A DNA stretch of 64,000 bases from IMG/VR virus record IMGVR_UViG_3300045988_174509, one strand, 5' to 3'. The notes beneath the pieces were generated by a model. It was not told where the DNA came from. It saw only the letters and a program-made list of their open reading frames with translations, and ran no database searches. The position numbers and the translations under genes are program-made. The stretch is from a virus. This document shows positions 12,284-38,570 of this stretch, in pieces; the stretch's first letter is position 1, and the number at the start of each line of letters is the position of its first letter.

Positions 12284-12330
12284 CGGAGCGCAACACAGCT
12301 CCAACCTGTTTACATACCTCATATTACATT

Positions 12331-23641: not shown

Positions 23642-24237
23642 TTCCAGCACGCGGATTTAATATCAAAGTGGCACTTGACGGAGAGATCACATCCGCATAA
23701 TGTGCAATACAAAACAGGGCGACCTTCAGCCAGACTTCCCCGTTCCTTCACCAGCTCATGCAAAAACTTGCGGGCCGAGCCCCCGGCTCCGCATGATTCG
23801 CATCCCTCCTTCTCCATGTCCGGCGGAGGTACAGGCGTGGACTTGGGGCACCGGGAGCAAATCTCATAGCGGCGGCGGGCTTCGGATATATCTACGAACC
23901 TGTGCCCTCTGCGGTACCAAAGGATCATGGTGAGAAAAAAGCCCAGCACTTTCCTGGCTGTCATCGGCTGGTGCTCCGGCCAGGAGATTCCTTCATCCCC
24001 GCAGGATTCACAGTATCCTTCCGGGAGCTGGAGACACAGGGCCTGATGGAAAGCATCTTCGTCATAGGTCTCATCGTTGTTGCGGAGAATGGAAGCCATT
24101 TGATTCCGCAGTTCCACCAGCGTGGGTGCCGTAATCAAGGTTCCCTGGAGTCTGGGGCTCAGGGCTTCAGGGATTCGGAACTTCCACCCGCCCGGGGGCG
24201 TGACATGCAGATTGGGATGAGCTAAAATTTTAGGCAT
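23638..24237 (-). CDS. Cys-rich zinc-finger protein
   Basis: 199 aa with several CxxC pairs (CESCGDEG, CSRCPK, CESCGAGG, CTLCGC). Confidence 0.45.
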   Translation of the reverse strand: MPKILAHPNLHVTPPGGWKFRIPEALSPRLQGTLITAPTLVELRNQMASILRNNDETYDEDAFHQALCLQLPEGYCESCGDEGISWPEHQPMTARKVLGFFLTMILWYRRGHRFVDISEARRRYEICSRCPKSTPVPPPDMEKEGCESCGAGGSARKFLHELVKERGSLAEGRPVLYCTLCGCDLSVKCHFDIKSACWK

Positions 24238-24292
24238 GCCCTGATGATAGAGGCATGCCTAAAGAAAAGCAAGACGGAAAATGGGAAGCCTT

Positions 24293-24571
24293 CTACTTCA
24301 GATAAAGATCAGCATCCTTTTCCGAGATGGGGTAAGCACAGGCATCATTCAGACCAGCACTTATATCATAGAGACAGGAAGTCAGCTCCTGGTTTTCAGC
24401 GGCAACAATGCCCAGCCTGTATTGTATAAATTCCTTTTTTTTCTGAAGAGTCTTGAACCAGTTGCGCCATGCCTCCAACTCCTTTGCTACTGCATAAGAA
24501 TCAGAAAGCAAGGTATCCAAAGAAGGAGGGGTGTCCTCTAAATTTTTTATGTACTTTTCTAATGTTGACAT
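24293..24571 (-). CDS. hypothetical protein
   Basis: 92-aa ORF with ATG start, overlapping the upstream gene's end by 13 nt. Confidence 0.35.
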   Translation of the reverse strand: MSTLEKYIKNLEDTPPSLDTLLSDSYAVAKELEAWRNWFKTLQKKKEFIQYRLGIVAAENQELTSCLYDISAGLNDACAYPISEKDADLYLK

Positions 24572-25110
24572 GTTTTTGAACGGTAAACTTGAGCCCAGTA
24601 GAACCGGGCTATTTTGTTTTTAATATCCACCACAACAAATTCAGAAAGGGTGAAGGGAGAATTCCATCGGAAGAAAAACCGAAGACATCTTATCGTGTAT
24701 TGGGCCACCTTCAAGGCAACCTGATAGGCTTCCTCCGGGGAACGGAAGTCTTGAATGTATATGGTTCTGTAAAACGTCTGGGACTTTAAGGGAGTCCTAA
24801 CAAGCACATTGAAATTATTATCACTGAATGCTACCAGACTTGACGGGTCTTTAAACTTTTCCCGGTAGGATTCTTCCCGAACCCTCTTGGCATCATCCCC
24901 GAATACATATCTTGTCCTGCTTACAATAAGAGAAGCCTCCTCATAATTAAACTGGCTCTCCAGTTCAGGGTTATGCTTCTTTGGATTCTGAAGCCGGGGG
25001 ATAACTTCCCCCGGCTCTCCTCCATCCAGAGTGCTGACATCATACCGGATGCCCCTCCGTGGCATGCGGAGGCTCCGGTATGAGGGACTAAATCTTTTCT
25101 TCTTGATCAT
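24559..25110 (-). CDS. hypothetical protein
   Basis: 183-aa ORF, ATG start. Confidence 0.4.
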   Translation of the reverse strand: MIKKKRFSPSYRSLRMPRRGIRYDVSTLDGGEPGEVIPRLQNPKKHNPELESQFNYEEASLIVSRTRYVFGDDAKRVREESYREKFKDPSSLVAFSDNNFNVLVRTPLKSQTFYRTIYIQDFRSPEEAYQVALKVAQYTIRCLRFFFRWNSPFTLSEFVVVDIKNKIARFYWAQVYRSKTCQH

Positions 25111-25669
25111 CTATTTTAACAGCCTCAAAAAATTCATAGTCAAGCAGTTCAGATAGAGGAAGGCTCCCACATTCTAAAGGTTCGTCAAATCCATTGATAT
25201 TCTTCCAGTAATAGTGGCCTGAAACTTTTAGAAGTTTAAGAAGCGAAGTAGTTCCAGTCTGGGGGTTTTTTAGTTTGACAAACTTGCCAGACATCATCAA
25301 GTCAATAGCTTTTCCTATTGTGATGGACCTCTCATATTGAATCTCTGCTTTTAAATGGAATCCATTTTTAATAGTTTCAGGAGCCCAGTTAAGAAAGGTT
25401 TGTAATTCTGAAAAATATACTGGGTTTTCCTCTGAATCTTTCATGACGCTGACTATGACCTGTACAAACTGGTTCTTACAGTTGCGTTTTATTTTTCTTA
25501 GCTTCCCATTAAAGAACTGATACAGAAATTGATCCCCAGGCTTATGAGTAAACAGGATTTCCAGACCCTCCTTAAATGAAACAGGGTTGGACAAGTAAAC
25601 TCCAAAATTTTTACATTGAAAATATTCTTTAAGAGAATTCATAAAAATTATAGTTGTTAAATTTCTCAC
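25088..25669 (-). CDS. hypothetical protein
   Basis: 193-aa ORF. The track start is GTG; an in-frame ATG lies at 25642. Confidence 0.35.
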   Translation of the reverse strand: MRNLTTIIFMNSLKEYFQCKNFGVYLSNPVSFKEGLEILFTHKPGDQFLYQFFNGKLRKIKRNCKNQFVQVIVSVMKDSEENPVYFSELQTFLNWAPETIKNGFHLKAEIQYERSITIGKAIDLMMSGKFVKLKNPQTGTTSLLKLLKVSGHYYWKNINGFDEPLECGSLPLSELLDYEFFEAVKIDDQEEKI

Positions 25670-26081
25670 GAGTTGCCATTATATCATAGGAGTCAGTTTC
25701 TATAATGAGTCCTTTCAAGGCATCACAAATTCTAATATCTTTGAACCTATGAGAATAGATTGCCAGCCTCTTCCCTGTCACTAGCTTTTCAACAGCCGCG
25801 TCAAAGGCAAGAGCCTTGGCCAATGGAAGGACAGTATCCAAAACAAATCCTTCTTCCTTTAGTTGAGGATCAAACTTGGCCGGGGCTACCTGAGAATAGA
25901 GAACCGAACCATTAGGGAGTCTTGCACACTTTCTTTCCATGAGGGCCCCTTCATCGTAATCAAAAATGTAGCGGACCGCATAGGAATCTTTTTCCGCGAC
26001 ATGTCGATAAAGGCAATGCACGCCGTTCGGGTTAGTCAGGGCGCAAAGACCCTCTTTAAATGTATAATGTTTAGTGTCCAT
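25629..26081 (-). CDS. hypothetical protein
   Basis: 150-aa ORF, ATG start. Confidence 0.4.
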   Translation of the reverse strand: MDTKHYTFKEGLCALTNPNGVHCLYRHVAEKDSYAVRYIFDYDEGALMERKCARLPNGSVLYSQVAPAKFDPQLKEEGFVLDTVLPLAKALAFDAAVEKLVTGKRLAIYSHRFKDIRICDALKGLIIETDSYDIMATREKFNNYNFYEFS

Positions 26082-26412
26082 CAGGGTTACGGGTTAGGTT
26101 GTCAAAGTATTTTATTCCATCATCAGAAATTATGTAGGCTTTAGGAAAGGTATCAGGAACTAAAAGGACAAGACCAATGCGCCTCAATGAGCTCAGATAC
26201 TTTCCAATGCTTGCCCGGTCAACCAGATTGGCCGCGGCAATTTCTTTTACAGTCACAGCGGCAGGCTGGAGAAGGATAAAGCAAAGCAGTTTCACTTCCT
26301 TGTGCCGGAGTATGCAGTTACGGTCGTAATGGGCAAAGTAATTAAACAGCAGGCGAGCCTTCGGTTTCACCCGCTCCATTAGGTCCTTCTTTTTTCTCTT
26401 CCAGTTTAGCAT
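26071..26412 (-). CDS. winged-helix DNA-binding protein, paralog family 3 of 3
   Basis: The helix pattern LLCFILLQPAAVTVKEIAAANLVDRASIGKYLSSLRRIGLV...DDGIKYF is shared with 859..1182 and 49397..49690. The track start is TTG 26421; the ATG is at 26412. Confidence 0.4.
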   Translation of the reverse strand: MLNWKRKKKDLMERVKPKARLLFNYFAHYDRNCILRHKEVKLLCFILLQPAAVTVKEIAAANLVDRASIGKYLSSLRRIGLVLLVPDTFPKAYIISDDGIKYFDNLTRNPDGH

Positions 26413-26899
26413 ATGTTTCAATAATTTTTTGTTTAGATATGACCCCCTTCATCAGCAGGAGAGGAATGGCGTAATTTGTGCATTCAGTAATGTGCTTCTT
26501 CTTCTCTTCCGGATTCCCGGTCAGCTTGTATAGCTGACATCCGAGGAGCAGAACGATTGCGTTGACGAGGATATTAGGGGGACAGATTAAATCAGTTTTC
26601 CCCCAGTCCTCTTCCAGCACCTTGACAGATTGCTCTACCAAATCACACCCGGCATTCAGGCAGGCATTCAGGAGTCCGTTCACTTCCTCCTCATGGAAGA
26701 CTTCCCCCTCCCCAAAACTGTAGAGAGCCATGGCATTTTTCTTAATGCCCTCTATGTCCTCGGGCCCCTGGATAGGAGGAAGGGAGTTGACCAGGGTGCT
26801 GAGGAGCAGAGCCTGATCATTCACTTTCTTTTTTCTGTCCGCTTCCATTTTTTCACAGGTGTGATCCAACTTCTTCTGGAGTTTTGTTTTCTTTTTCAT
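26342..26899 (-). CDS. hypothetical protein
   Basis: 185-aa ORF, ATG start. Confidence 0.4.
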   Translation of the reverse strand: MKKKTKLQKKLDHTCEKMEADRKKKVNDQALLLSTLVNSLPPIQGPEDIEGIKKNAMALYSFGEGEVFHEEEVNGLLNACLNAGCDLVEQSVKVLEEDWGKTDLICPPNILVNAIVLLLGCQLYKLTGNPEEKKKHITECTNYAIPLLLMKGVISKQKIIETYAKLEEKKEGPNGAGETEGSPAV

Positions 26900-27540
26900 T
26901 TAATAGGTCTTTGAAAATGAGCGCATAGACGTTCCGCCAGGAACATGGGGATTCTAAAAAGAACCTCCACCAAACCTTTGGTAAATTCCTTAACCCTTTC
27001 TTCCTTTCCTTCCTGGTCATTGCCCTCCGTATCAAACAAATTTTCGACATGGCAGGTATTAACAAAACCAACATGGATCAAATAAATTGAAAGAAGAAGA
27101 GTCATCTTTATCACTTTGGGAGGTATTGAACCCTCCCCTCTACTCATGGTCTGATGAAGTTCAATAAGAGACATAAGCTGGGAAATTTTAGGAAGCCTGA
27201 GAATAAACTCAAGCAAATCTATGCTCGCCATGAAAACTTTTTCCCTCATGTAATCAGGTCCGAGAACCTTGACTTCAAGATCGTATTCCTCAAGGATCGA
27301 ATTCAAAGTAGAACACCAGACTTCCTCTATCTTGATCTGGTTTTCTTTGACCCTTAGATCAAAGTCCTTCTCAGTGCAATTCTCTTTTGACTCCCTTAAA
27401 GATTTTATATCTTTGAAAAACTTTCCGAATCCGGAATTAAAATCTTCCATGCTGAAAGCCAGACCTTTACGGAAGACCAGATTAAGCAGATCATCATTGA
27501 TCTCGCCCCATGTAATAGCAGTTTTTTCTGTTGTATTCAT
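26896..27540 (-). CDS. hypothetical protein
   Basis: 214-aa ORF, ATG start. A possible 31-aa upstream ORF (27642..27547) lies between the conserved motif and this gene. Confidence 0.4.
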   Translation of the reverse strand: MNTTEKTAITWGEINDDLLNLVFRKGLAFSMEDFNSGFGKFFKDIKSLRESKENCTEKDFDLRVKENQIKIEEVWCSTLNSILEEYDLEVKVLGPDYMREKVFMASIDLLEFILRLPKISQLMSLIELHQTMSRGEGSIPPKVIKMTLLLSIYLIHVGFVNTCHVENLFDTEGNDQEGKEERVKEFTKGLVEVLFRIPMFLAERLCAHFQRPIK

Positions 27541-27653
27541 ATTGTACTAATGGTTAATAACGTCAAGGAATCCGGGAATCTGGAATTCACGGAACCAGGA
27601 GGTCAAAAACTCCTTGGCTTGCATTAAGGTAAGTAACTTCATGATGATTTATG

Positions 27654-27666
27654 TTGAGGTTCTAAC
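27654..27666 (-). promoter_or_regulatory. conserved leftward motif instance (GTTAGAACCTCAA)
   Basis: Member of the recurring motif with consensus TTTAGAATCTCAAC (minus-strand sense). It lies 11 nt upstream of a possible 31-aa ORF start at 27642. Confidence 0.4.
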
Positions 27667-27679
27667 AAGTTCTAGTGGT

Positions 27680-28252
27680 TTATCGCAAGAAGTAGATAGT
27701 ACATGGGGAACCCGGAATCAGGGAATCAGGGCGCGTCCAGACCTTCAAAGGCTTTAATACCGAATAGGCGGACCGGACATCGTAAAGCATTTGAGAAAGA
27801 TACAGGAGCACCTTTTCAAAACTGCTCACTTGAGCGGCCCCGATTACAACATTGCGGTTCTGGCTTGAGACTTCAATGAAATAACATCCCCGCTCTTCCA
27901 TCTTGTACACGTCCGCTTTGATCACTTCCTTGAGAGGGAGAGCCAGCTCATTCTTCTGGGGCTTCCCCGCCCATCTAAGGCCAAGGATATGGGAGGCATG
28001 CGGACCAAGAACCTTATCAACCTCCTTCTTTATAAGCTTTGACACTGCATCCATCACGATCGTAAGGTCTTCATCCGTGTCAGATGGGGCCGGAGTAATG
28101 AATTGATCTATGGCAAGATAATTGGTAGGGGCCTGAAAGGTGCCGGAGAAATGAATCCTCGCTTCATATCCCGGCAGGTCTTTGGTGATCTTCTTCCATG
28201 CCCCCAAAGCTGCCCGAAGGAATTTCCAATCGGCATCATTAAATTTAATCAT
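27680..28252 (-). CDS. hypothetical protein
   Basis: 190-aa ORF with ATG start, overlapping the upstream gene in ATGATTAA. Confidence 0.45.
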   Translation of the reverse strand: MIKFNDADWKFLRAALGAWKKITKDLPGYEARIHFSGTFQAPTNYLAIDQFITPAPSDTDEDLTIVMDAVSKLIKKEVDKVLGPHASHILGLRWAGKPQKNELALPLKEVIKADVYKMEERGCYFIEVSSQNRNVVIGAAQVSSFEKVLLYLSQMLYDVRSAYSVLKPLKVWTRPDSLIPGSPCTIYFLR

Positions 28253-28643
28253 GATTTTTAATGGCTGTTTTACGTTGAGATTCTAAAGACAGCATTTCTT
28301 TTACAAGTTGCCAGCAAGAAAACAGGTATTGAACTACCCTGTCCATCATCTTGACTGCTGATAAAAGAAGATGGCTTACAGATACATAAACGAAGAACAC
28401 GGCAAGCACATTTAAAAGCAGGGCCATTAGCTTGTCTTCGTTGATCAGGTGATGAATGCTAAACCCAAAAACACTTCCTTCAATGGCGGCTAGAATCCAG
28501 CACCATGATATCCATAATTCAAGAGTCTTGTGAAGGAAATCTCTGAGTTTCCCTGCCTTCAGGTACAGGCCAAGACAAGCGTTCGCCCGTTCGGGCAATG
28601 GAAATCTCAGAAGATACTTGCTCAGAAGTTTATGCGGTTTCAT
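28245..28643 (-). CDS. hypothetical membrane protein
   Basis: 132 aa with 2-3 hydrophobic helices. Its ATG is directly abutted by the conserved TTTAGAATCTCAAC motif. Confidence 0.4.
   Translation of the reverse strand: MKPHKLLSKYLLRFPLPERANACLGLYLKAGKLRDFLHKTLELWISWCWILAAIEGSVFGFSIHHLINEDKLMALLLNVLAVFFVYVSVSHLLLSAVKMMDRVVQYLFSCWQLVKEMLSLESQRKTAIKNHD
28275..28288 (-). promoter_or_regulatory. conserved leftward motif instance (CTTTAGAATCTCAA)
   Basis: Inside the 3' end of 28245..28643, 22 nt upstream of the ATG of 27680..28252. Confidence 0.4.
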
Positions 28644-28905
28644 GTTGAGATTCTAAAGGGGTTAAGCACACGTGGATATGCCGGGCGGTTCCCGGGGCTT
28701 TGAGCTCCAGCTCAAAGCCCCCTGCCAGTAGCTTGCGGTTTGCTTTCCGCAAGTCGGCAAGAAGGAACCTGCTGTTTTCTACCAGGATTTTTCTTCTCCC
28801 ATCAGAAAAAATTTCAATGGCCCCCATGGTGTGATGCGCCTGAAAGAATTCGTTTAGGATTTCTTTCACTTCCTGTTCTGTCAGTTTATTTGAATGGTAA
28901 AGCAT
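28630..28905 (-). CDS. hypothetical protein
   Basis: 91-aa ORF, ATG start. Confidence 0.35.
   Translation of the reverse strand: MLYHSNKLTEQEVKEILNEFFQAHHTMGAIEIFSDGRRKILVENSRFLLADLRKANRKLLAGGFELELKAPGTARHIHVCLTPLESQHETA
28645..28659 (-). promoter_or_regulatory. conserved leftward motif instance (CCTTTAGAATCTCAA-C-ATG)
   Basis: It abuts the ATG of 28245..28643. Confidence 0.45.
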
Positions 28906-29240
28906 GACTCTTTGATCATCTGTAGGGTTGGAATAATTTACAGGGGCTCATAGTGGTCCCTAAAATAGAACCGCCTGCCCTGAAAGAATCATTCAAAAGA
29001 TTATCCATGATCTGCTGGCTCTTGATAAAATTGATATGACTCCTTATCAACTTTTGGGACTCCATTGAAAGGATTCTTGAGCGTAGAATGTGGAAGTTCC
29101 CGGCTTAAATGGGTTTTTGGTATTCATGATTATGATTTCTTTCTATTTAGTATTGGTTAGCGCGGCGATCTTGCCGCATGTCTTCACTGTAGTAAACTGA
29201 TCTGTTTTTACAAGATATTTTTCAAAAAAATTTTCTTACG

Positions 29241-29255
29241 TTGAGCTTCTATAAG
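29241..29255 (-). promoter_or_regulatory. conserved leftward motif instance (CTTATAGAAGCTCAA)
   Basis: It lies 10 nt after the stop of 29266..30252, and begins a ~330 nt stretch containing only very small ORFs. Confidence 0.35.
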
Positions 29256-29265
29256 TTATGCAATT

Positions 29266-30252
29266 CTATTTCATGTAGAATTTGAATTTTGTCTCACCCT
29301 TTTCAGAATCTTCCGTCACTCGGATGCGCTTCAGAAGGAACGGGAAAACTTCGTTGCACTTGGCTTCCACCTTGTCGAGAATTTCCGTTGGAACTTCAGG
29401 CATTTCAGGACTGGGAGATTTCCAGACAAGATAGCCGTAATATTGTGTGAAGGGAACAAAGGAAGCACTTGCTCCAACTTCCTTTCCGAGCTCCTCGAAT
29501 ATTGCATTCACGTCCTGACTAAGCACAGAATAAAATTCCTGCATTTTTTCAAGGGCGTCATCCAAGCAAAGATTCTCTACTTTATGGAACACGTACTGGG
29601 AAAGGTTCCCCTTCTCATTTACCACAAGATTTTTATTCAGGGATCGCCACACACACACCTTATATTTTCCCGGTGCACTGTCTTCCATGTGCTGAACCGT
29701 AAGGAAGAAGGGAGCGGAAGGAATCCTGATTGCCAAGTCACTTTCCAGAATCCGGGAAGCATGAAGCCTTTCAATGGGAATCCGGGGAACAGAAGTCAGG
29801 GGACCAAGGGAGAGAACAATAGAAAGGTTCCGTTTATAATTGTTAAACTTCTCTCTTGGAGAATTTTCTTGGTAGAACTCTTCTATTTTTTCAATCTCTC
29901 CTTCCCGGGAGAAGAACGCAAGCACTCTTTCATGGTCATTTGTTATTTGAGCATGCGCCTTGCGTGTCTCGAGAGTTGGATTGAAACAATGCGATTCAAC
30001 CCATACCGAATATTCTCTTGGCTTTTTTAGCCGGAGAATGAGACGGATAGCTCTTTCATTAGGTTCAAACAAGCCATAGTAGCGAAGTGACAAGGTTTTC
30101 ATTTCTCCTTCCCGCGGATTTTTCCGCTTAAAGGTGACGCGGAACAACTTTCTAGGATTGGCTTCAGGGATTCCATAAGGCTTTACGCCGTTCTTCTCCC
30201 ATTTAACGCTGAAAGAAATATCCATGCCTTCGAGTAATGATTCAGTTTCCAT
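29266..30252 (-). CDS. hypothetical protein
   Basis: 328-aa ORF, ATG start. Confidence 0.45.
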   Translation of the reverse strand: METESLLEGMDISFSVKWEKNGVKPYGIPEANPRKLFRVTFKRKNPREGEMKTLSLRYYGLFEPNERAIRLILRLKKPREYSVWVESHCFNPTLETRKAHAQITNDHERVLAFFSREGEIEKIEEFYQENSPREKFNNYKRNLSIVLSLGPLTSVPRIPIERLHASRILESDLAIRIPSAPFFLTVQHMEDSAPGKYKVCVWRSLNKNLVVNEKGNLSQYVFHKVENLCLDDALEKMQEFYSVLSQDVNAIFEELGKEVGASASFVPFTQYYGYLVWKSPSPEMPEVPTEILDKVEAKCNEVFPFLLKRIRVTEDSEKGETKFKFYMK

Positions 30253-30292
30253 ATTATTTTTAGGTTCTATATATTAGAGGTTCTTTTATTTA

Positions 30293-30742
30293 TTAGCGTT
30301 CTTCTCTTTCAGTTTTGATCTTTATGCTACCTTCGGAAGGAATTTTAGCGATTCTAAACGCAAAATAATAGCCTTTATCCGCATCATGGTAAGAAAAGTA
30401 ATCCTCCAAGCTACTGGTGAAGACCTTTTCCATATTCTCCGTATGTAGCAGGGGGAGAATGCCCTCTCCTATATAAAACTGAAGAGATTGAACGCCTGCC
30501 ATTAAATCCGTTTCAGCTATCACCTGATCTTCAATCACTTTCCCGGTTCGTTCTTCAACAATTTTCCTTAAATTGCATTCAAGAAGATAGCCAAACCATT
30601 CCAAAGGATCAGTAAAATATTCATCCGTAGCCGTTTCATTGGCAAGCTTCAAGCAATAATCTCTTACATGCTCCGATTTGCTTTGCCTTGCCATGTCAAT
30701 CAGCTTCCTAATGGCGGCAAGCCTGTATTCATTTATGTTCAT
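30293..30742 (-). CDS. hypothetical protein
   Basis: 149-aa ORF with ATG start. It is preceded by the conserved leader and a 24-bp perfect palindrome. Confidence 0.4.
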   Translation of the reverse strand: MNINEYRLAAIRKLIDMARQSKSEHVRDYCLKLANETATDEYFTDPLEWFGYLLECNLRKIVEERTGKVIEDQVIAETDLMAGVQSLQFYIGEGILPLLHTENMEKVFTSSLEDYFSYHDADKGYYFAFRIAKIPSEGSIKIKTEREER

Positions 30743-30778
30743 TATATTTAGTCCCTTTCTACTTGTTTTTTGATTCCG

Positions 30779-30802
30779 GCGGGCAGGAAATTTCCTGCCC
30801 GC
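30779..30802. promoter_or_regulatory. 24-bp perfect palindrome GCGGGCAGGAAATTTCCTGCCCGC in 5' region of 30293..30742
   Basis: Seen directly in the sequence. It is flanked (minus sense) by the conserved leader ATCAAAAAACAAGTAGAAAG. Confidence 0.5.
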
Positions 30803-30804
30803 AT

Positions 30805-30819
30805 AGAGATTCTAAAAGG
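30805..30819 (-). promoter_or_regulatory. conserved leftward motif instance (CCTTTTAGAATCTCT)
   Basis: Immediately followed (minus sense) by the 24-bp palindrome 30779-30802, then the conserved leader and the ATG at 30742. Confidence 0.4.
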
Positions 30820-30856
30820 AAATGCGTGAGAAAATGCACTGAACTTAAAAACTCCT

Positions 30857-31036
30857 TCACAAAAGGCGGGCGTTATGCTCTACATACCATTCGGCAGGAT
30901 AAAGGTCCACACCTCCCCTGACTCCCGGATTCTGTGACTCCCGGAATCCCTGAAGCAGGGATACAAACATTTCTGGATCACTCATTTCGTGAGTCAATAC
31001 GGCGGGCGCGGCTTTTTCTTCTATACTAGTGTTCAT
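30857..31036 (-). CDS. hypothetical small protein
   Basis: The track ORF runs to 31081. The internal ATG 31036 reproduces the leader architecture (GTAGAAAG-N12-ATG) seen upstream of 30293..30742. Confidence 0.3.
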   Translation of the reverse strand: MNTSIEEKAAPAVLTHEMSDPEMFVSLLQGFRESQNPGVRGGVDLYPAEWYVEHNARLL

Positions 31037-31073
31037 TTTATGTCTTCTTTCTACTTGTTTTTTGTTTTTTGAT

Positions 31074-31089
31074 CCGCCCATGGGGGCGG
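31074..31089. promoter_or_regulatory. GC hairpin CCGCCC-ATGG-GGGCGG with the same conserved downstream leader
   Basis: Second copy of the hairpin plus (A)TCAAAAAACAAGTAGAAAG module, upstream of ATG 31036. Confidence 0.45.
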
Positions 31090-31160
31090 GGGCATGAATT
31101 TAGATTAGCTTAGTGATTGTATTGTACAATAAAAATAGTAAAGATTTTTGTCATACACGT

Positions 31161-31622
31161 TTACAAGTCATCGAACATGGCGGAAAGGCAGGCGTAATTC
31201 CTTGAGGGATAAAGGCATTCAAACCCTTGCAAGGGGTAGGTGATTTTGATTCCTTTGCAATATATGTTTGCACTGCACGACGGAATGTTCAGCATGCGCA
31301 ACTCCGAAAGAACGGAATTTTTAGCTTGCCTTGCGGCCATTTGCAAGGATGAATCTGAAAAACTGAAAGGGAACTCCCTGATAAATGACGTTTTGTATCC
31401 GGAGTTCTCCAATTCAATGATGATCACCAGCCGGAATTGCGCGCCTTTGGCGTCATGATACTCTAGCGGAAGAAACTCCCGGCAATTTTGTGTCATGTTC
31501 CACACGTCCAATGCTCCTCTATTCATAAGACTTTGAATCACGGAGGAAGGGGAACAGGAAGCAGGGAAAGACTTGGAACGGTGCTTTTCCTTTGTAATGT
31601 ATGCGTATTCAATAAGTTCCAT
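31161..31622 (-). CDS. hypothetical protein
   Basis: The track start is TTG 31643. The ATG at 31622 is directly abutted by the conserved motif. Confidence 0.4.
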   Translation of the reverse strand: MELIEYAYITKEKHRSKSFPASCSPSSVIQSLMNRGALDVWNMTQNCREFLPLEYHDAKGAQFRLVIIIELENSGYKTSFIREFPFSFSDSSLQMAARQAKNSVLSELRMLNIPSCSANIYCKGIKITYPLQGFECLYPSRNYACLSAMFDDL

Positions 31623-31625
31623 ATA

Positions 31626-31640
31626 TTGAGATTCTATAAT
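31626..31640 (-). promoter_or_regulatory. conserved leftward motif instance (ATTATAGAATCTCAA-TAT-ATG)
   Basis: It abuts ATG 31622 of 31161..31622. Confidence 0.45.
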
Positions 31641-32935
31641 CAAGATTGTTTCTTTGTAGACCGCCCCCTTGTATCAAACGCCGGGATATTTAATTTTCTC
31701 CTTGCTTTTCCGATAACTTGTATTGATTTGCCTGTTTTATTAGCGACTTCTTTATCAGTCATTGTGCCCAGCAGGGATTTAATGTATTCGTCCCCTTCTA
31801 TTGTTTCTTGCAAGCTTTTTTCCTCACGTAATGCCGGAACATTCAATTTCTGTCTAATTCTTCTTACTGCCTCGTCATCAATATTAAATTTTTCGGCTAT
31901 TACTCTATCATAAACTTTCCCAAGCATAGATAAGAGTTTTTTACGTTGGTCCGGTGAAAATCTTTCTAAAATGCTTTTACTGAAAGGCTTAATTTTGTTC
32001 TGTTCTCTAAATTTTTTAATTACATATACGCTGTACCCTGTTTTTTTTGCAATTTTTAAATCTGATACTCTTCCCAATAAATTAAGAATTATATCCTTGT
32101 CCGCATCCTTAATGGGAGCTGGAGCAATTTTTAATTTTCTACGGTTCCGCGCTACAACATTAAGCGATATTCCAAGCCTTTCAGCAATTTCGCTATCAGG
32201 AATTTTCCCAAGCATGGATAGCATTTCTTCGCGTTTCTCTTCGGGGATTTTAGTATCAGATAATGATAGAATGCCCATCTTTTTTCTAATAAGCGCAATT
32301 CCTGCCTTGGAATAACCGAATTTTTTAGCAATTTCATCATCCGGGGTCTTTCCAAGCATGTTAATTAACTCTTCGGGATACTCTTTTTTCTTGTGTGGTT
32401 TATTTGGGTCTCGTGGCTGACGGGGTTTACGCGGCCCCCTATATGACTTAATCCCTAATTTCTTTCTAAGGTAGGCTACTCTGGAATTTGAGTATCCAAA
32501 CTTCTTGGCACACTCCGAGTCAGGAATTTTTCCGAGCACTGCAATAAGCTCTTCATCGTGTTGGATGCGGATTGCTTCAGGGCTGCAATACTTTTTGATA
32601 CCTAATTTATAGCGTTCAGTCTGGACCGTGACGCGCGCTATTCCGAGTAGCTCGGCGATTTCCAGGTCAGGTTTTTTGCCCAACATGGACCGCATTTCTT
32701 CACGCTGTTCGTGAGAAAGAATGCGGTGAAACCTCTTTTCTCGGTATTTTTCATGCAATAACTCCATGAGCAATTGCATGTATTCAGGCGTGGGATGTGG
32801 TTTTTTAGTATTTAGCCACTTCCAAACAGCATCTTCCGTCACCCGCATCATCTGCGCGGCCCTTTTTACAGCTTGGGTAGGACTTGGGAGATTGTTGGCC
32901 GTTTGAAGCCAGTCGATAAATTCTTGTGCGGTCAT
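31640..32935 (-). CDS. tandem helix-turn-helix repeat DNA-binding protein (8 sigma-70 region 4/LuxR-like HTH modules)
   Basis: 431 aa. About 8 repeats of ~36-40 aa fit the pattern LxxLGKxPDxEIAxKxGxSxxxVxxxRxKLGI. Confidence 0.55.
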   Translation of the reverse strand: MTAQEFIDWLQTANNLPSPTQAVKRAAQMMRVTEDAVWKWLNTKKPHPTPEYMQLLMELLHEKYREKRFHRILSHEQREEMRSMLGKKPDLEIAELLGIARVTVQTERYKLGIKKYCSPEAIRIQHDEELIAVLGKIPDSECAKKFGYSNSRVAYLRKKLGIKSYRGPRKPRQPRDPNKPHKKKEYPEELINMLGKTPDDEIAKKFGYSKAGIALIRKKMGILSLSDTKIPEEKREEMLSMLGKIPDSEIAERLGISLNVVARNRRKLKIAPAPIKDADKDIILNLLGRVSDLKIAKKTGYSVYVIKKFREQNKIKPFSKSILERFSPDQRKKLLSMLGKVYDRVIAEKFNIDDEAVRRIRQKLNVPALREEKSLQETIEGDEYIKSLLGTMTDKEVANKTGKSIQVIGKARRKLNIPAFDTRGRSTKKQS

Positions 32936-32947
32936 GGTGAGAAAGGA

Positions 32948-32966
32948 GGGGCGGCAATGCCGCCCC
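32948..32966. promoter_or_regulatory. GC-rich 9-bp stem/3-nt loop hairpin between the acidic gene and the multi-HTH gene
   Basis: ggggcggca-atg-ccgcccc, 12 nt upstream of ATG 32935 on the minus strand. Confidence 0.4.
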
Positions 32967-32976
32967 TGGGGGTTAT

Positions 32977-33303
32977 TTAGTGAGCTTCAACGCGGGAAGC
33001 GTCCTGCGTCCAGTTGAGGTTTTCTCCTTCAATTTCTTCGCCCGTCATTTGTTCAAAGACCATGTAGATTTCAACCTTGTTCCCTTCTGCATCATAGCCG
33101 GGAGCAGACCATTCTTCCATATAACTGCCGTCTTCGTATTTGTCCGCATAGGAGCCAGGGAAAACCCTGTTGGTGTATTCCATCTGGCGCGCTGCATAGT
33201 AGGTCTTGCCTTCGAACTTGTAGCTGCCAAATTCACGTTCAAGAGCGGTCAGGTTGATTTCTTCTCCGTCTTCCGTGGTGATGATTTTGTTATCGTTCAT
33301 CAT
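32977..33303 (-). CDS. highly acidic small protein (first gene of leftward block)
   Basis: 108 aa with ~24 Asp/Glu against ~9 Lys/Arg. It is the first ORF after the origin-like region. Confidence 0.4.
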   Translation of the reverse strand: MMNDNKIITTEDGEEINLTALEREFGSYKFEGKTYYAARQMEYTNRVFPGSYADKYEDGSYMEEWSAPGYDAEGNKVEIYMVFEQMTGEEIEGENLNWTQDASRVEAH

Positions 33304-33339
33304 TTTTGTAATTCCTTTCTTTCAGGTTTTATTCTTGGC

Positions 33340-33356
33340 AGGGCGTTGCGCCCTTG
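33340..33356. promoter_or_regulatory. 6-bp stem/3-nt loop hairpin AGGGCG-TTG-CGCCCT upstream of first leftward gene
   Basis: It lies ~40 nt upstream of ATG 33303 and is followed (minus sense) by GAAAGAAAGG-N13-ATG. Confidence 0.35.
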
Positions 33357-34377
33357 CATGATTTTTTGATAGCATTACGGAGGGTTCCGTTCAACCGATT
33401 TTTTGCAGGGAGCCGGCAAGTGATTTAAAATGAAAGGATTATAATTGTGTCATACAAGGTGTAAAAAAGTGTGAAAAGGTGCTTGCAATGTAAAAATCCG
33501 GCATTTGCGGCACAAAAATCCAGCGTCAAAATCAGGCATGGGGGAGTATCGTAAAAAGTACAATAAGCCATGAAGCCGGGAAACCCGGGTTCCGGGTTCC
33601 GGGTTTGGAGGATTAGGCAATAATTGAGGCAGGTGCAAAAGCAGGAATGATTCATAAAATTTTATGGCTGGTGTCCCATATTTGAGCCGGATTCCATAAA
33701 ATTTTATGGAACTTTGGACAGTTTCAGGGTGTCAGGTATAAAATTTTGTAAAAGCAGGGAGAGGCGGGTGCAGGGCGTCAGGGTAACTTAGAATCAGGGA
33801 GTCAGGGGATCAGTTTGGAGGATTAGGCAAGAATTTGAGAAGAAAGGAAGGCCCTTCTTTTCTTCTCATATCATCAACGTATCATGATATGTTGATATGT
33901 TATGATTCACAAGCAAGCCCGCAATTTATACAGGCGTATAAATATGCACCCCTGAACCCCTGATTCCGCCCTTCCCTGCACCCCGCTTCACACGTCAAAA
34001 AATACAATAACCCCCCTATTTCCGGCTATGGAAAAATTCAAACGTAACATAATGGATTGAATCTTAACGTCTAGCACGTTCATACTTCGCATAATATGTG
34101 TAATGCAAAATCGGAAGCACGATTCAGGCATAACAAGAAAATACATAAGAAGTTATGAAGGAAATTACCCTGAAATTGGAAGCCGATTTCCGCCATACGG
34201 GAGGTTTACAGGGCCAGGGGTTCAAGGTTAGAGTGGCTCAAAGGTTCAGGGTTCGAGCAACTCTAACCCGGAATCAGGAAACATACCACCACGGTTGAGG
34301 GGGCTCACGGGTTCAGCGAGTGGAGGTATAAATCTTTGGGTCGGGAATGCCCTGGAGGAACCATTTTTGGAGAAAGG

Positions 34378-34510
34378 GGGATGTATGGACCTAGAAGGCG
34401 GGTTTACCCCCAGTTGGGTACTCTGTACCGGACCTACCCCAAAACACAGTTTTAGGCGACCACCCTACATGAAAAAACCGTATTCTGGCATGAGCATGGT
34501 TCCCAGGCAT
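34378..34510. repeat. ~130-bp direct repeat, copy 1
   Basis: The last ~85 bp are near-identical to 34666-34750. Each copy contains AAAACaCAGTTTT and begins with ATGGACCTAGAAGGCGGGTTTACCC. Confidence 0.6.
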
Positions 34511-34617
34511 GCGTAAAGGGCGGATACCACCACGGGGGAAGGGGTGGAACTTGGGAACCGGAAAGGGCGGGATCAGGGGTTCAGGGGGTCGGAAAAAATC
34601 GGTGAAAACGGAAAAAT

Positions 34618-34750
34618 GGGAGGTATGGACCTAGAAGGCGGGTTTACCCTCTTTCCGCTACAGAGTACTGGACCGACCCCAAAACGCAGTTTTAGGCGAC
34701 CACCCTACATGAAAAAACCGTATTCTGGCATGAGCATGGTTCCCAGGCAT
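34618..34750. repeat. ~130-bp direct repeat, copy 2
   Basis: As copy 1. The middle ~30 bp segment is replaced while the flanks are identical. Confidence 0.6.
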
Positions 34751-34839
34751 CCTCGCGTGCGCATGCGCGTAGGCATGGGCATGGGCTGGCAGGGGTCGGC
34801 ATACATGTCGGAAGAAAGGTCGGAAAAAGGGTCGGCATG

Positions 34840-34930
34840 AGCGGGGCTCGCCTACGCATACGCGTACGTACGCGCACATGGCCCGCGTCACCCGCGCATG
34901 TGTGGGCATGTGCAGGCGTATGCGCTCGCC
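34840..34930. repeat. GC-rich alternating purine/pyrimidine tract (CGCATACGCGTACGTACGCGCACATG...)
   Basis: Seen directly in the sequence: CG/CA/TG dinucleotide alternation with imperfect inverted repeats. It immediately precedes the AT-rich block. Confidence 0.5.
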
Positions 34931-35187: not shown

Positions 35188-35324
35188 TCGACATTTTTAC
35201 GACATTTTTACGACGTTTTTTTGACCCCATTTTTGACCCCATTTTTGACCCCATTTTTGACCCCATTTTTGACCCCATTTTTGACCCCATTTTTGACCCC
35301 ATTTTTGACCCCATTTTTGACCCC
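35188..35324. repeat. phased A/T-tract tandem repeats: CGACATTTTTA x3 (11 bp) then TTGACCCCATTT x8.7 (12 bp)
   Basis: Perfect copies counted in sequence from 35221. The antisense 82-aa MGSK-repeat ORF is an artefact of this array. Confidence 0.7.
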
Positions 35325-35388
35325 CTGAATCCGTGATTCCGCCCTCCCGTTCCACCTCCATTTTTGACCCCCTGAATCCGTGATTCCG
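35314..35388. repeat. direct repeat TTTGACCCCCTGAATCCGTGATTCCG x2
   Basis: Two copies ~48 bp apart, just upstream of the primase-helicase start. Confidence 0.5.
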
Positions 35389-35483
35389 GATACCTCCGGA
35401 CCCCCGTCACCGGAAACCCCTTTTTATTTTTCTCTTGACAGGATTTCCGTCCGGATTATCCTGGCTCCACATTAATACATCCC

Positions 35484-38400
35484 ATGACACCCCTATATAT
35501 CGACGACATTCATATCTCTATTGCCGCCCCATCCGCCCCGCAGTGGCTCACTGCCATGGACGTAAACAAAAGGTTCTACCATGTCGGTCATTGCAATAAT
35601 GCCTTTAATGCGGGGCTGAAGGCTATTGCCCTTGGCTGGATGAAATTTGAGGACGCAGAAGGCTTTCCGCTCACTCCCGATTTGCGCAGATGCGGCTATA
35701 TGTGCGACGCCTATGCAATGGACAAGGGCGTGAAACTTCCCGCCCTCCTGCCTGATGCCTATATAGATAGTATTTCCAAATGGCGGGAAATCTCCCCCGA
35801 GGCGGGCATCCCCAAATCCGTGCTCCCAGCCTTCGTGCCGTCAGTCTCCTTCAATTACAAGTTCATTCGCAAATGGCAGAAGGACAACCAGGATGACCGG
35901 AAGAAGTACCTGAGCGCGAAAGCCTTGGCCGGACGCGATCCCCGGGCGTGGAGCCATACGGGCCTGTTCTGCATTGACATTGACGCCGGGCACGACGGAA
36001 ACCCTGAAGCCCCTGACGCCCTGTACGCCCAGGCCCATGCCAATGGCGCCTTCTCCCTGATGCCCGGATTCCTTTTTTCCTTTGCATCCCCGAATCAGGG
36101 AATCAAGCTGATGTTTAAAGTGGACCCGGTTCTGCTCGCGCTTCTCAATACCCCGGAAGGATGCGGAGATGCGGACCTGGAATCCCCGGAAGTATCGGGG
36201 GAAGCCCTCGCCCGGGTGCAGTCTTTGCGCGAGAAGAACCACGCCATATGCTTTTACGCTATCGCCGCGATGGTTTCCCGCCATACCGGGCTTGCCGTGG
36301 ATTTATCCTGCTCCGATCCCTGCCGCCTCCAGTTCATGTTCCGGGCCCATGCCTCCCGGTATGAGCTCAATCCCTGTCTCCTTGATTCCGAAGTCCCGGA
36401 TTCCCTGCTTCCTGGGTTCAGCATCGACGGAGCCGATGCATGGAGGGAGTATGAGGAGACAGCCGCCCGCCGCGGAGCCGGAGGCTCCGCTGTGCAACCC
36501 CGGAATTTTGAGCCCGGAAAAGACAATAAGCCCGACAGTATTTTGAGGTTTGCCGACTGGCTCAAATCCAGGGGGTGGCTGAAGGAAGCCCAGCACGTTT
36601 TGGACATGACTCCCGGACCCCGGGGCTATTATTCGTTCTGCCTCCAGTGCCGGGATGTAAGCAGTACGCCTTCCGGACCTCGTGACTTGCTCCTGTGGCT
36701 TGACAGGGATTCCCCCGGGAGGTTCGGCTTCAAGTGCCTGCATGAATCCTGCCAGAGCCGGGCCAAGGTCAAGTACCCGTTCTGGTATCTGGCAAAGCTC
36801 TACCATGAGGAGCAGGAGGCGTTGAAGATTGCCCATGAGGCATCCAATTCCTATCAGGTGCCTGAGCCCATCCGCAAGTTCATCCGCACCAGAAGCGAGC
36901 TCTCCGAGCACAAGATCATCATTGGGAACATCGGGATGGTCCAGTCCTCCTTCAAGACTCCCGATGCCCTGCCGAACCTGTTCGAGTGGGATGAGAAGAC
37001 CGGAGCCCTGCTTACTACGGCCCTGAATGTGTCGGGCTATGTGCGCCACTGCATGGGATTGTATCCCGTATATAACAAGGACCTGTGCTGTAACGAGTTC
37101 ATTTCTCCGGATACGGGCATGTGCTTCCCGTTTGACGCGGTGCGCAAGGCCGTCCTCGGCTACTTCATGACCCGGTGCAACAAGGACGTGTCCAAGCAGT
37201 TTCTTTTTACCTCCCTGCATGAGGCCCAGGGCCTTTCCTATTCGCCGCTGTTTGCGCTGGGGTACTGGGAGGAGTGGGACGGAGTTCCCCGGGTGGACCA
37301 GTATATCGACCTGCTGGAGTGGGACCCGGCCCACCAGCCGCCTAAAATCTTAAAGGAGGATGGCACGCCCATGTCGGGGCAGGAGTGGAAGCGGCATGCC
37401 CTGCGCTCCTGGCTGGTGAATTGCTGGGAGCGCACCGTCTGCTCGGTGATCGGCTCGGACAAGGTGCCGACCTTCGGTGGCCGCCCCTCGCACCTGATGC
37501 CGGAAAACAAGATGATCATCCTCTGCTCGGAGACCCAGGGGGTGGGCAAGACCCAGTGGGTGAAGGGGCTGGTGGGGAGCAAGGCCCAGGAGTCGCTGGT
37601 CATTGCCGATAAGCTGGAGCAGAGCAAGGACCATGACAAGATTTCGGCCATCAAGCCGATCTTTTTCCTTGACGAGATGGAGAAGACTACGAAGAACGAG
37701 GAGATGAACTCGCATCTCAAGATGGTGCTGACCCGGAGCCACATTGACATTCGTGATCCCTATGAGAAGGACATCATGCACAGGAAGGTGGTGACTTCCT
37801 TCATCGGGGCGACCAACGAGCCAAAGCCTTTGAGTGATGCCGATGGAAGCCGCAGGCTTGTGTTGCTTTATGTGAGGAGGCCCGCCGATAAGATGGGCAG
37901 TGTAGGCAATTGCCCCGAGCATGTGAAGGAGATGCAGTCGCTCAATGTCGCCCAGTTCTGGGCCGAGATCAAGTACCTGTCCGAAACGGCCAAGCCCGGG
38001 GAGTATGCGCTGACGCCCCAGGAGACCAATCTTGTGCATTACAACCAGACCACGGCTTTGGAGAACGGGGAGTTCAACCACCTCGTATCCTACCTCCGCT
38101 TCATTCCCTCAAACTACCCGGCGGCGGACGGGAAACAGCTCCGCAAGATGATCAACGGGGCGTACAACGATCCGGCCAATATCATCAATTCGGTCCGCAG
38201 GTATCTCGGGGAGCGGGAGATCAAGGTCTCCTGGCGCGGGAGCAAGCAGTTCCGCCAGCATCTTCTGGCCCAGGTGCCCGAGGGGTGCTCTCCCACCTAC
38301 TATACAGGCAAGCGCGGGTCTCCCCGTGTCGCCCTGTACCCGGTTATGCTTGAATCCGAGTTCGAGCTTCTGGCCTCCGATACAGCCAGGAAATCCTGGG

Positions 38401-38570
38401 CTCGGGACAACCCGGAGGAGGCGGCGAAGTATTACAAGCGGATCAAGTTCGGCCTGGGAGATGGTTCCCTGGTTGACGTGGACCCGGCGCAGGCCGAGAA
38501 GCTGGACATCTACAAGCCCTACTATGACCAGTATATGGAGGACAGTCTGGAAAATGAGGACGAGGAGTAA
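35484..38570 (+). CDS. primase-helicase (AEP-type primase/polymerase fused to D5-like SF3 helicase)
   Basis: N-terminal LFCIDIDAGHDG (AEP hhhDhD motif), Cys/His cluster CLQCRD...CLHESC, Walker A ETQGVGKT and Walker B-like VTSFIGATNE. 1,028 aa. Confidence 0.7.
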   Translation: MTPLYIDDIHISIAAPSAPQWLTAMDVNKRFYHVGHCNNAFNAGLKAIALGWMKFEDAEGFPLTPDLRRCGYMCDAYAMDKGVKLPALLPDAYIDSISKWREISPEAGIPKSVLPAFVPSVSFNYKFIRKWQKDNQDDRKKYLSAKALAGRDPRAWSHTGLFCIDIDAGHDGNPEAPDALYAQAHANGAFSLMPGFLFSFASPNQGIKLMFKVDPVLLALLNTPEGCGDADLESPEVSGEALARVQSLREKNHAICFYAIAAMVSRHTGLAVDLSCSDPCRLQFMFRAHASRYELNPCLLDSEVPDSLLPGFSIDGADAWREYEETAARRGAGGSAVQPRNFEPGKDNKPDSILRFADWLKSRGWLKEAQHVLDMTPGPRGYYSFCLQCRDVSSTPSGPRDLLLWLDRDSPGRFGFKCLHESCQSRAKVKYPFWYLAKLYHEEQEALKIAHEASNSYQVPEPIRKFIRTRSELSEHKIIIGNIGMVQSSFKTPDALPNLFEWDEKTGALLTTALNVSGYVRHCMGLYPVYNKDLCCNEFISPDTGMCFPFDAVRKAVLGYFMTRCNKDVSKQFLFTSLHEAQGLSYSPLFALGYWEEWDGVPRVDQYIDLLEWDPAHQPPKILKEDGTPMSGQEWKRHALRSWLVNCWERTVCSVIGSDKVPTFGGRPSHLMPENKMIILCSETQGVGKTQWVKGLVGSKAQESLVIADKLEQSKDHDKISAIKPIFFLDEMEKTTKNEEMNSHLKMVLTRSHIDIRDPYEKDIMHRKVVTSFIGATNEPKPLSDADGSRRLVLLYVRRPADKMGSVGNCPEHVKEMQSLNVAQFWAEIKYLSETAKPGEYALTPQETNLVHYNQTTALENGEFNHLVSYLRFIPSNYPAADGKQLRKMINGAYNDPANIINSVRRYLGEREIKVSWRGSKQFRQHLLAQVPEGCSPTYYTGKRGSPRVALYPVMLESEFELLASDTARKSWARDNPEEAAKYYKRIKFGLGDGSLVDVDPAQAEKLDIYKPYYDQYMEDSLENEDEE

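Follow-up and report, generated by a model that had tools for sequence, protein, structure and literature searches.

In the multi-module arms of homing endonucleases, as in Myb-type repeats, each module of the protein adds a few base pairs (bp) to the site that is read. The GIY-YIG homing endonucleases of Vibrio phages (1.170.O, helene 12B3 and eugene 12A10) carry one to four tandem modules of a single repeat family on a catalytic domain. Another phage protein of tandem tri-helical units, D5 of phage T5 (T5.118), is itself made of three or four units resembling a helix-turn-helix (HTH), and its record describes a double-stranded DNA (dsDNA)-binding protein needed for replication, late transcription and early shut-off. 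Phages also carry morons, accessory cassettes expressed in lysogeny, of which lambda rexAB and the sieB-type genes are examples. Here we analyse a stretch of 64,000 nucleotides (nt) of viral DNA (IMG/VR record IMGVR_UViG_3300045988_174509; hereafter the window, by which we mean the whole stretch), which encodes at 31640..32935, on the minus strand, a protein of the same repeat family as the Vibrio-phage enzymes. The gene, which we refer to as the poly-HTH gene, was delineated from a list of open reading frames (ORFs), Pfam, PHROGs and an AlphaFold2 (AF2) model. Its product has an XRE-like HTH head followed by seven tri-helical HTH repeats, in contrast to the one to four of the homing endonucleases, and it has no catalytic domain. 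What is new is thus that an HTH module of the homing-endonuclease type occurs here in an unusually long array that stands alone, on a mobile cassette. On balance, we favour the view that the protein is an accessory, horizontally mobile DNA-binding protein for long composite sites, which may act in regulation or competition.

The ORF of the poly-HTH gene starts with ATG and encodes 431 amino acids (aa), exactly as in an earlier interpretation of the window made from its letters alone (hereafter the sequence-only reading), which also rightly placed the gene second in a leftward block, after the 108-aa ORF orf108 at 32977..33303. A 2.1-kb non-coding, repeat-rich region separates this block from a rightward VapE-like primase-helicase gene (35484-38570). 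The product is strongly basic, with an isoelectric point (pI) of 9.9 and a net charge of about +35. The ratio of nonsynonymous to synonymous substitution rates (dN/dS) against homologues is 0.24-0.53, and we therefore conclude that the gene is under purifying selection and functional.

The seven repeats are anchored on the motif [LM]LG[KRT]xxD at residues 84, 133, 193, 241, 286, 337 and 388, and they share the consensus LLGxxxDxxIAxxxGxSxxxVxxxRxxLGI. The sequence-only reading had counted about eight HTH modules with a period of about 38 aa. Its total of eight HTH units stands, provided that we count seven repeats and one XRE-like HTH, but its period does not: the measured period is 45-60 aa, and it is the conserved core that spans ~31-38 aa. 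When the repeats are aligned as 46-residue windows, five positions (L10, G11, D15, A19 and R33) are invariant in 7/7 repeats, and the mean pairwise identity is 42% across the 31-aa core. In a leave-one-out test with hidden Markov models (HMMs), each repeat scores 35-64 bits, as compared with a maximum of 13 bits in 500 shuffles; the repeats are, therefore, far above chance. The presumed recognition helices (helix 3) of the seven repeats all differ in sequence.

In order along the chain, with all coordinates on the minus strand, repeat 1 occupies aa 76-121 (32573..32710; 43 bits in the leave-one-out test) and repeat 2 aa 125-170 (32426..32563; 55.5 bits). Between repeats 2 and 3 lies a Pro/Arg/Lys-rich linker, PRKPRQPRDPNKPH, at aa 171-184 (32384..32425), which was recognised from the alignment and from the low confidence of the model at residues 173-175; its length differs between homologues, it is disordered in the AF2 model, and it may be a minor-groove or spacer element. 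Repeat 3 (aa 185-230; 32246..32383) is missing from the homologue P0022, whereas repeat 4 (aa 233-278; 32102..32239) is the strongest at 64 bits and contains the best single stretch for Pfam HTH_23. Repeats 5 (aa 278-323; 31967..32104), 6 (aa 329-374; 31814..31951) and 7 (aa 380-425; 31661..31798) complete the array, and like repeat 3 they are defined by the alignment together with the leave-one-out HMM. The number of repeats among orthologues ranges from 6 to 9.

The N-terminal domain, aa 1-67 (32735..32935, minus strand), is defined by Pfam, PHROGs, the alignment and the AF2 model. The sequence-only reading had taken the first 60 or so residues to be unique; we find instead an XRE/Cro-like HTH (Pfam YdaS_toxin, E 0.006; phrog_409, E 2e-5), with helices at residues 3-13, 19-30 and 34-41, followed by a long invariant helix at 51-67 (MQLLMELLHEKY). 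This helix, of the form MxLLMxLLHEKY, is the best-conserved segment in the family as a whole, and the domain is the best-conserved part of the protein. According to the orthologue alignment, the whole domain is present three times in the homologue P0005.

The AF2 model was computed from an alignment of 16 homologues. It contains three helices in each repeat with a predicted local distance difference test (pLDDT) score of 70-90, linkers of low confidence, and a predicted template modelling (pTM) score of 0.28. Each repeat is thus predicted to fold as three helices, and the protein as modelled is a beads-on-a-string chain, joined by flexible basic linkers, with no fixed inter-domain geometry. 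Taking Pfam, the model and the leave-one-out HMMs together, the proposal of a single-chain HTH array holds up, and the protein very probably binds DNA over an extended stretch.

The assignment of the repeats to the sigma-70 region 4/LuxR type, on the other hand, was loose. The best Pfam match is the homeodomain-like HTH_23 (40.8 bits against a cut-off of 24.6; E 1.8e-10), for which aa 244-266 are individually significant, followed by HTH_28, which reaches 30.8 bits against a cut-off of 25 by adding up weak matches. Sigma70_r4_2 passes its threshold (26.1 against 25.7) by the same summing of weak matches, with no single stretch significant, and both Sigma70_r4 (17.2 against 24.1) and GerE (14.5 against 23.5) fall under the Pfam threshold. 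Scans of the protein against NCBIfam and PADLOC gave nothing at cut-off, the PADLOC matches being weak ones to HEase (E 0.0011) and Csa3 (E 0.014). Sequence searches of the PDB, with the whole protein and with the repeat profile, returned weak generic HTH matches, and a Foldseek search of the model against the PDB gave no significant match (best E 0.013-0.07). In PHROGs the protein matches phrog_323, a 'transcriptional regulator, D5-like' (E 1.1e-23, 85 bits), but this is a partial match at the level of the repeats, with three stretches aligning to profile positions 86-190 of 319. Other PHROGs matches include several homing-endonuclease and HNH families, and the structural matches in BFVD include several endonucleases and the 'D5 protein' of a Vibrio phage.

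The relationship to homing endonucleases is the closest of those that we find. With tblastn, the poly-HTH protein has a single match in a cultured phage, to the C-terminal portion of a GIY-YIG protein from a Vibrio phage. In Vibrio phage 1.170.O, the protein NVP1170O_214 consists of a GIY-YIG domain (TIGR01453, 55.2 bits) and then three units of the form W...LLGTxxDxxLAxxLGYSxxTIxxRRKSLGIPSY, and the seven-repeat profile aligns with these units at an hhalign probability of 97% (E 9e-11, 41/46 columns). With P0069, a more canonical member of the poly-HTH family, as the query, tblastn retrieves more Vibrio-phage homing endonucleases, as well as a single module under mycobacteriophage DNA methyltransferase genes. 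By these alignments, the module type is that of the DNA-targeting arm in the Vibrio-phage GIY-YIG homing endonucleases. A nuclease domain (GIY-YIG, HNH or LAGLIDADG) is absent from both proteins of the cassette in Pfam, NCBIfam and PADLOC.

The remaining likenesses are weaker. D5 of T5 shares with the poly-HTH protein its composition of tandem tri-helical HTH-like units in a phage protein, but the likeness in sequence is that of HTHs in general (hhalign probability 26% for the repeat profile; BLASTP E 0.002), and D5, annotated as required, belongs to the replication module of T5, whereas the poly-HTH gene is accessory and mobile. As far as these comparisons go, D5 is an architectural analogue with no demonstrable homology. 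Myb/SANT arrays (c-Myb R1-R3, Reb1) and multi-homeodomain proteins also consist of three-helix units on flexible linkers and read composite sites; distant members of the poly-HTH family open each unit with W-T-x-x-E, as Myb/SANT repeats do, and Foldseek gives weak matches of the model to Reb1-Ter, Myb, DUX4 and Tc3. The eukaryotic arrays, however, have 2-5 units as against 7-19, and the likeness is one of analogy only. Finally, a single repeat can be aligned with the HTH and the ensuing 'R..LGIP' tail both in the sigma-54 RpoN box (2o8k) and in the N-terminal HTH of FapR (4a0x), but these alignments are weak (E 0.05-0.1), and the poly-HTH protein is without sigma region 2/3, a receiver or a ligand-binding domain.

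We searched the seven-repeat profile against 1.84 billion representative proteins, and obtained 6,688 clusters (at 50% identity) with E <= 1e-3, 2,830 with E <= 1e-10 and 428 with E <= 1e-30. The best 150 matches contain a median of 6 repeats, with a range of 3 to 19. The sequence-only reading considered single-chain arrays of this length to be unusual. This is correct for proteins that have been studied, among which we found none characterised with as many HTH units as the poly-HTH protein, but not for the profile matches, with their 6,688 clusters and up to 19 repeats: long HTH arrays are rare among characterised proteins and frequent in sequence space. Named members are a 'hypothetical protein' of Pseudomonas guariconensis, another of Thermoanaerobaculia, and a 'CsgD family regulator' in IMG. 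The genomic contexts of arrays in the family differ: one lies in a Pseudomonas island beside genes for HNH, PLD, HEPN and integrase proteins, another among consecutive ORFans of a phage-like 100-kb contig, and a third in an ordinary chromosomal neighbourhood. No curated family for the repeat exists in the copies of Pfam, NCBIfam, PHROGs and PADLOC that we searched, and literature searches on phage proteins with tandem HTHs, on prophages of Akkermansia and on gene D5 of T5 returned nothing usable. In a logo of 1,052 repeats, the scaffold is highly conserved (L10 0.95, G11 0.99, D15 0.99, A19 0.87, V29 0.76, R33 1.00, I38 0.91), while the least conserved positions (13, 16, 26-28, 30-31, 34-35 and 42-43) fall for the most part on the presumed recognition helix.

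The poly-HTH gene moves together with orf108. By blastn and by the sequences at the junctions, the two form a mobile cassette of 1.66 kb (31639..33302, minus strand), bordered by the 5' end of orf108 and, exactly, by the stop codon of the poly-HTH gene, and this cassette is the only DNA of the window that is common to unrelated Akkermansia phages (Akkermansia was assigned as the host from two NCBI names, Akkermansia massiliensis and Akkermansia sp.). Proteins 97-98% identical to the poly-HTH product occur on unrelated temperate backbones. One of them, P0001 (97%), is encoded in L001, a temperate phage whose different backbone includes an integrase, RecT, YqaJ, RuvC, a DnaC-like loader, an Sf6-type TerS and a Mu-type portal. 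The nucleotide identity between L001 and the window is 96.5%, and it is confined to 31639-33302. Both in L001 and in L028 the cassette lies between the TerS and DnaC-like genes, on the opposite strand to its neighbours. Ten further IMG/VR contigs share a stretch with the same limits (96-99% nucleotide identity), and so does a third backbone, that of L005/L006 (83-86%), in which the cassette stands behind an S24 CI-like repressor, in its orientation, and points towards a convergent endolysin gene. Altogether, at least 15 loci, on two other phage backbones, have no homology to the window outside 31639-33302. A more distant orthologue, 47% identical and with nine repeats, occupies the same TerS/DnaC slot alongside an orf108 that is 80% identical. 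A megablast search with positions 29-39 kb of the window found no match among GenBank phages, and GTDB representative genomes contain no relative.

In the phages that resemble the presumed donor, structured DNA follows the cassette: directly after the poly-HTH stop there is a tandem 17-nt repeat in a hairpin in L001-type phages (TATACGAGATTCCAGGG twice; L001 11306-11360) and a bidirectional terminator hairpin in L006 (11345-11400). These hairpins are consistent with an autonomous moron unit.

The closest relatives of the window phage indicate how the cassette may have arrived. Two IMG/VR contigs carry the backbone of the window: 3300045988_175860 (hereafter 175860, comprising L008 and L021) and 169882 (L022). 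Their primase-helicases are 93% and 97% identical to that of the window at the amino acid level, and relatives with the 93% enzyme have ~85-96% nucleotide identity over the shared backbone. Contig 175860 (66.8 kb) has its ends in or beside a 12-bp tandem array, which we discuss below, and is for this reason judged to be near-complete. It lacks the cassette, and carries an intact 183/204-aa gene instead of window positions 31640-33352; its homology to the window restarts directly after the poly-HTH stop codon, and it retains the intergenic region (85% identity) with two 138-nt repeats, the leftward promoter region and a variant of the 12-bp array. The cassette is likewise missing from L035, an independent human-gut assembly that is 99.98% identical to 175860 across the slot region. 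Contig 169882 (64.6 kb), by comparison, ends in 36 nt of the poly-HTH 3' end plus 19 nt of the L001-type downstream flank; further inward there are ~190 nt of other sequence, and then a 31-aa remnant of the 183/204-aa gene. L001-type phages are present in the same sample (3300045988), and contig 169882 most likely broke at a repeat that it shares with them.

Read as a series, these genomes would lead from no cassette, through a stage in which donor flank still adjoins the cassette and part of the displaced gene survives, to the clean junction at the stop codon that is seen in the window. The apparent donor is an L001-type temperate phage, and the cassette appears to have been inserted between the leftward promoter of the backbone and the original first gene, which was later deleted. 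The slot thus holds the 183/204-aa ORFan in L021 (1982-2596) and L035 (1555-2214), the 31-aa remnant in L022 (250-345) and the cassette in the window, and, lying right behind the leftward promoter, it is a hot spot. The displaced gene starts with MKDNKNIV and orf108 with MNDNKII, a similarity that points to recombination via micro-homology where the genes begin. Downstream, homology to the relatives resumes with a backbone gene of 153 aa from its ATG (31161..31622, minus strand), directly behind the cassette, which marks the edge of the variable slot. Upstream, a promoter scan identifies a sigma-70-like promoter (TTTACA-16-TATAAT, 11/12 of the consensus; 33438..33465, minus strand) ~135 nt from orf108, in backbone sequence that is also found in the cassette-less relative; the cassette is therefore probably driven by the phage's own leftward promoter. 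Presence in some and absence from other near-identical genomes, together with near-identical copies elsewhere, identify the unit as a mobile accessory cassette, and, on the evidence of these genomes, the poly-HTH gene is dispensable for the phage backbone.

The first gene of the cassette, orf108 (minus strand), encodes a protein that is acidic (pI 4.2, charge about -15) and beta-rich in its AF2 model (pLDDT 86, pTM 0.77), with no match in Pfam, in PADLOC or in Foldseek searches against the PDB, nucleases included. It is not tied to one architecture. In L001-type phages orf108 is fused behind an unrelated 88-aa N-terminal domain, which is also seen with other C-termini (P0060, P0062), and some Akkermansia phages have it joined to the end of a pentapeptide-repeat domain (P0044/P0047; L025 6001-6804). 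Some orf108 homologues have no poly-HTH gene with them and are followed by other small genes; conversely, the gene upstream of P0021, a poly-HTH gene 50% identical to ours, is unrelated to orf108.

What, then, might the protein do? Each module would read a few bp through its own recognition helix, so that the target of the chain would be a single long, asymmetric composite site, and not an array of identical iterons; alternatively, the chain would coat DNA. The poly-HTH gene of temperate phages would be expressed from the prophage, and its orientation matches that of a CI-like repressor or is antisense to lytic genes; in the window phage, which carries its own DNA polymerase, helicases and exonuclease and is in this sense replication-autonomous, the protein would be made at the very start of infection. 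It could then act as a repressor or occluder in conflicts between phages or between phage and host, for instance through superinfection exclusion or by silencing a competitor or a host locus. In several respects the cassette behaves as morons do: it is present or absent in close relatives, it has near-identical copies in unrelated backbones, its placement is antisense or CI-linked, and in L006 a terminator hairpin follows it. It departs from them in that no exclusion or defence family is matched and in that, in the window, it uses the promoter of the backbone and not its own.

Several points weigh against this view of an accessory binder of long sites. DNA binding itself is read from fold and family. 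Neither orf108 nor the neighbouring genes match a known anti-phage defence model in PADLOC, and since PADLOC finds no known defence family at all, a role in conflict is a conjecture from gene position. The k-mers common to the three phage backgrounds amount to about the chance number of 12-mers, and no DNA target was found among them, although a distant cognate site beyond the 8-10 kb that we examined on each side of the cassette in other host phages is possible. Although orf108 is often found next to the poly-HTH gene, neither gene requires the other, so that the cassette is no fixed two-component system. Lastly, the evidence for a cassette in contig 169882 is a 55-nt contig end, which is the length of a common assembler k-mer.

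The same gene could instead encode an early transcriptional takeover or switch factor in the manner of D5 of T5, that is, an abundant protein binding dsDNA or RNA polymerase that shuts off host or early genes or activates later ones; we regard this as possible, if rather unlikely. It would suit a gene that a strong sigma-70-like promoter places in the first transcription unit, the phrog_323 match (E 1e-23) and the structural match to the Vibrio phage 'D5 protein', as well as the tandem units of D5 and its annotation for late transcription and early shut-off, and single repeats do resemble the HTHs of the sigma-54 RpoN box and sigma-70 region 4. Yet the gene is dispensable in the closest relatives, so that any such role must be accessory; the hhalign probability against D5 is the low value given above; and in temperate phages the gene lies antisense to lytic operons or behind CI, where a lytic switch factor is not expected. 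This placement fits a moron expressed in the lysogen better than it fits a takeover factor.

A broader proposal, which we put forward as a doubtful one, concerns the family as a whole. The near-invariant scaffold LLG..D..A...G...V...R..LGI could hold modular, quasi-programmable DNA readers, which would either be fused to nucleases or methyltransferases or stand alone as long-site silencers in phage-phage conflict. Specificity would then reside in the hypervariable helix positions 26-28, 30-31 and 34-35, and gain or loss of repeats would retune the length and specificity of the target.

It is distinctly improbable that the gene is a derivative of a homing endonuclease, namely the arm of a GIY-YIG or HNH enzyme minus its nuclease, with cassette borders left by past homing, now serving as a site-specific binder in site protection or repression. 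The repeat family is common to the GIY-YIG arms, PHROGs and PADLOC both return homing-endonuclease matches, and the cassette is polymorphic for its insertion, with exact borders, within a conserved operon. Against this, no nuclease domain remains in either cassette protein, and the N-terminus is an XRE HTH and not a degenerate GIY-YIG or HNH domain; moreover, there are thousands of nuclease-free arrays, some of them chromosomal, and the cassette lies at non-homologous sites in different phages, which implies that there is no single homing site.

We consider it highly doubtful that the two genes form a toxin-antitoxin-like or self-limiting pair, in which DNA is compacted or blocked by the highly basic poly-HTH protein, and the acidic product of orf108, possibly a DNA mimic, neutralises that protein. 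The two proteins do carry opposite charges (+35 and -15), the acidic one is encoded by a small gene upstream, both genes move together, and fusions to a pentapeptide-repeat domain, a fold known in DNA mimics, exist among the orf108 homologues. The pair is nevertheless broken in both directions, by orf108 homologues that lack a poly-HTH gene and by P0021 with its unrelated upstream gene, and orf108 has no PADLOC, Pfam or structural match.

The sequence-only reading had preferred an iteron-binding initiator or organiser, in which the modules would bind the repeats at 33.3-35.5 kb and recruit the primase-helicase. A repeat scan finds there a perfect tandem array of nine 12-bp units, TTTTTGACCCCA, at 35218-35325 on the plus strand, upstream of the primase-helicase gene and ~110 nt upstream of its promoter-like site (TTGACA at 35435). 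The supposed distance of about 400 bp between the gene and its repeats is only partly right: the nearest short repeats and palindromes begin ~500-700 bp upstream of the poly-HTH start, and the 12-bp array is ~2.3 kb away. Although the gene belongs to a block that diverges from the primase-helicase gene across the 2.1-kb repeat-rich region, although seven modules at 12 bp each come near the 108-bp length of the array, and although D5, a tandem-HTH dsDNA binder, is annotated as required for replication, an initiator role is very unlikely, because relatives without the gene (L021/L008 and L035) keep the intergenic repeats and replication genes, while near-identical protein occurs in phages with other replication modules (RecT/YqaJ/DnaC-like) and no 12-bp repeat in the flanks, no two recognition helices are the same while the repeat units are all identical, and the winged-helix Rep fold is missing from the model by AF2 and Foldseek. 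Specifically, TTTTTGACCCCA is missing from the flanks (8-10 kb on each side) of the first seven cassette loci, which cover three backbone types and proteins 78-97% identical, and the flanks of L001 and L006 contain no tandem array of several copies. An annotation of the poly-HTH gene as an origin initiator would be tempting, but very probably wrong.

Two other candidates were rejected. A sigma factor would require region 2, which is missing; and a TerS-like packaging-specificity factor is contradicted by the position of the gene on the opposite strand to the adjacent TerS in L001 and by its absence from relatives.

The repeat-rich region has features of its own. Three TTTTTACGACA units precede the TTTTTGACCCCA array, an exact 31-nt duplicate follows it (35311-35341 and 35358-35388), and a lone copy of TTTTTGACCCCA occurs at 61248. 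The array of 175860 is built of the variant unit TTTTTTGACCCC, and the contigs of both relatives end in or beside the 12-bp array, which may be an origin, a genome terminus or a mere assembly breakpoint. In the middle of the non-coding region there is a direct repeat of 138 nt, in two copies of 89% identity (34373-34510 and 34613-34750), which is kept in the cassette-less L021 (548-685 and 788-920); neither strand gives an Rfam match or a folding signal. On the plus strand the two copies fall in ORFs 34295..34516 and 34544..34840 and encode a common peptide, MDLEGGFT...FRRPPYMKKPYSGMSMVPRH; in L021 one 177-aa ORF spans both.

Among the k-mers shared by the three phage backgrounds, the one that stands out belongs to a palindrome, ATCAACGTATCATGATATGTTGAT, at 33873-33896. 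Several unrelated Akkermansia phages each have exactly one copy of its half-site GATATGTTGAT, in similar surroundings. The corresponding positions are L001 6523, L028 4807, L006 17009 and L021 1394; in L001-type phages the half-site lies in the TerL-portal intergenic region. Since the palindrome is also present in the cassette-less relative, it provides no evidence concerning the poly-HTH protein; it may be a shared operator or a host-factor site.

Downstream of the cassette, the leftward block continues for 8.5 kb (23165-31643, minus strand) and consists entirely of ORFans: Pfam and PHROGs give no significant match across it, beyond one weak HTH_17, a composition typical of early or host-takeover regions. 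The block contains further insertions and deletions, with a 328-aa gene shortened to 75 aa in L022 and an extra 196-aa gene in L021. Elsewhere, an ORF at 12277-22500 on the plus strand encodes 3,407 aa with no Pfam match, in a phage genome of ~65 kb; its size recalls the virion RNA polymerases of N4-like phages. The divergence of the ORFan and replication blocks from the repeat-rich region in which contigs break would fit a linear genome with its early genes at one end.

For the phages of Akkermansia, a gut bacterium of medical interest, the cassette is a clear example of genes that passed recently from temperate phages to replication-autonomous ones, where they entered a hot-spot slot that heads the early operon. 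The main value of the finding, however, lies in the large uncharacterised repeat family behind the poly-HTH gene. If its modules read DNA additively, they would constitute a new natural scaffold for the recognition of long sites, and would account for the long targets of phage nucleases and accessory regulators. If, in addition, the arrays should prove to be quasi-programmable, they would be a bacterial counterpart, made from HTH units, of transcription activator-like effector (TALE) and zinc-finger arrays.

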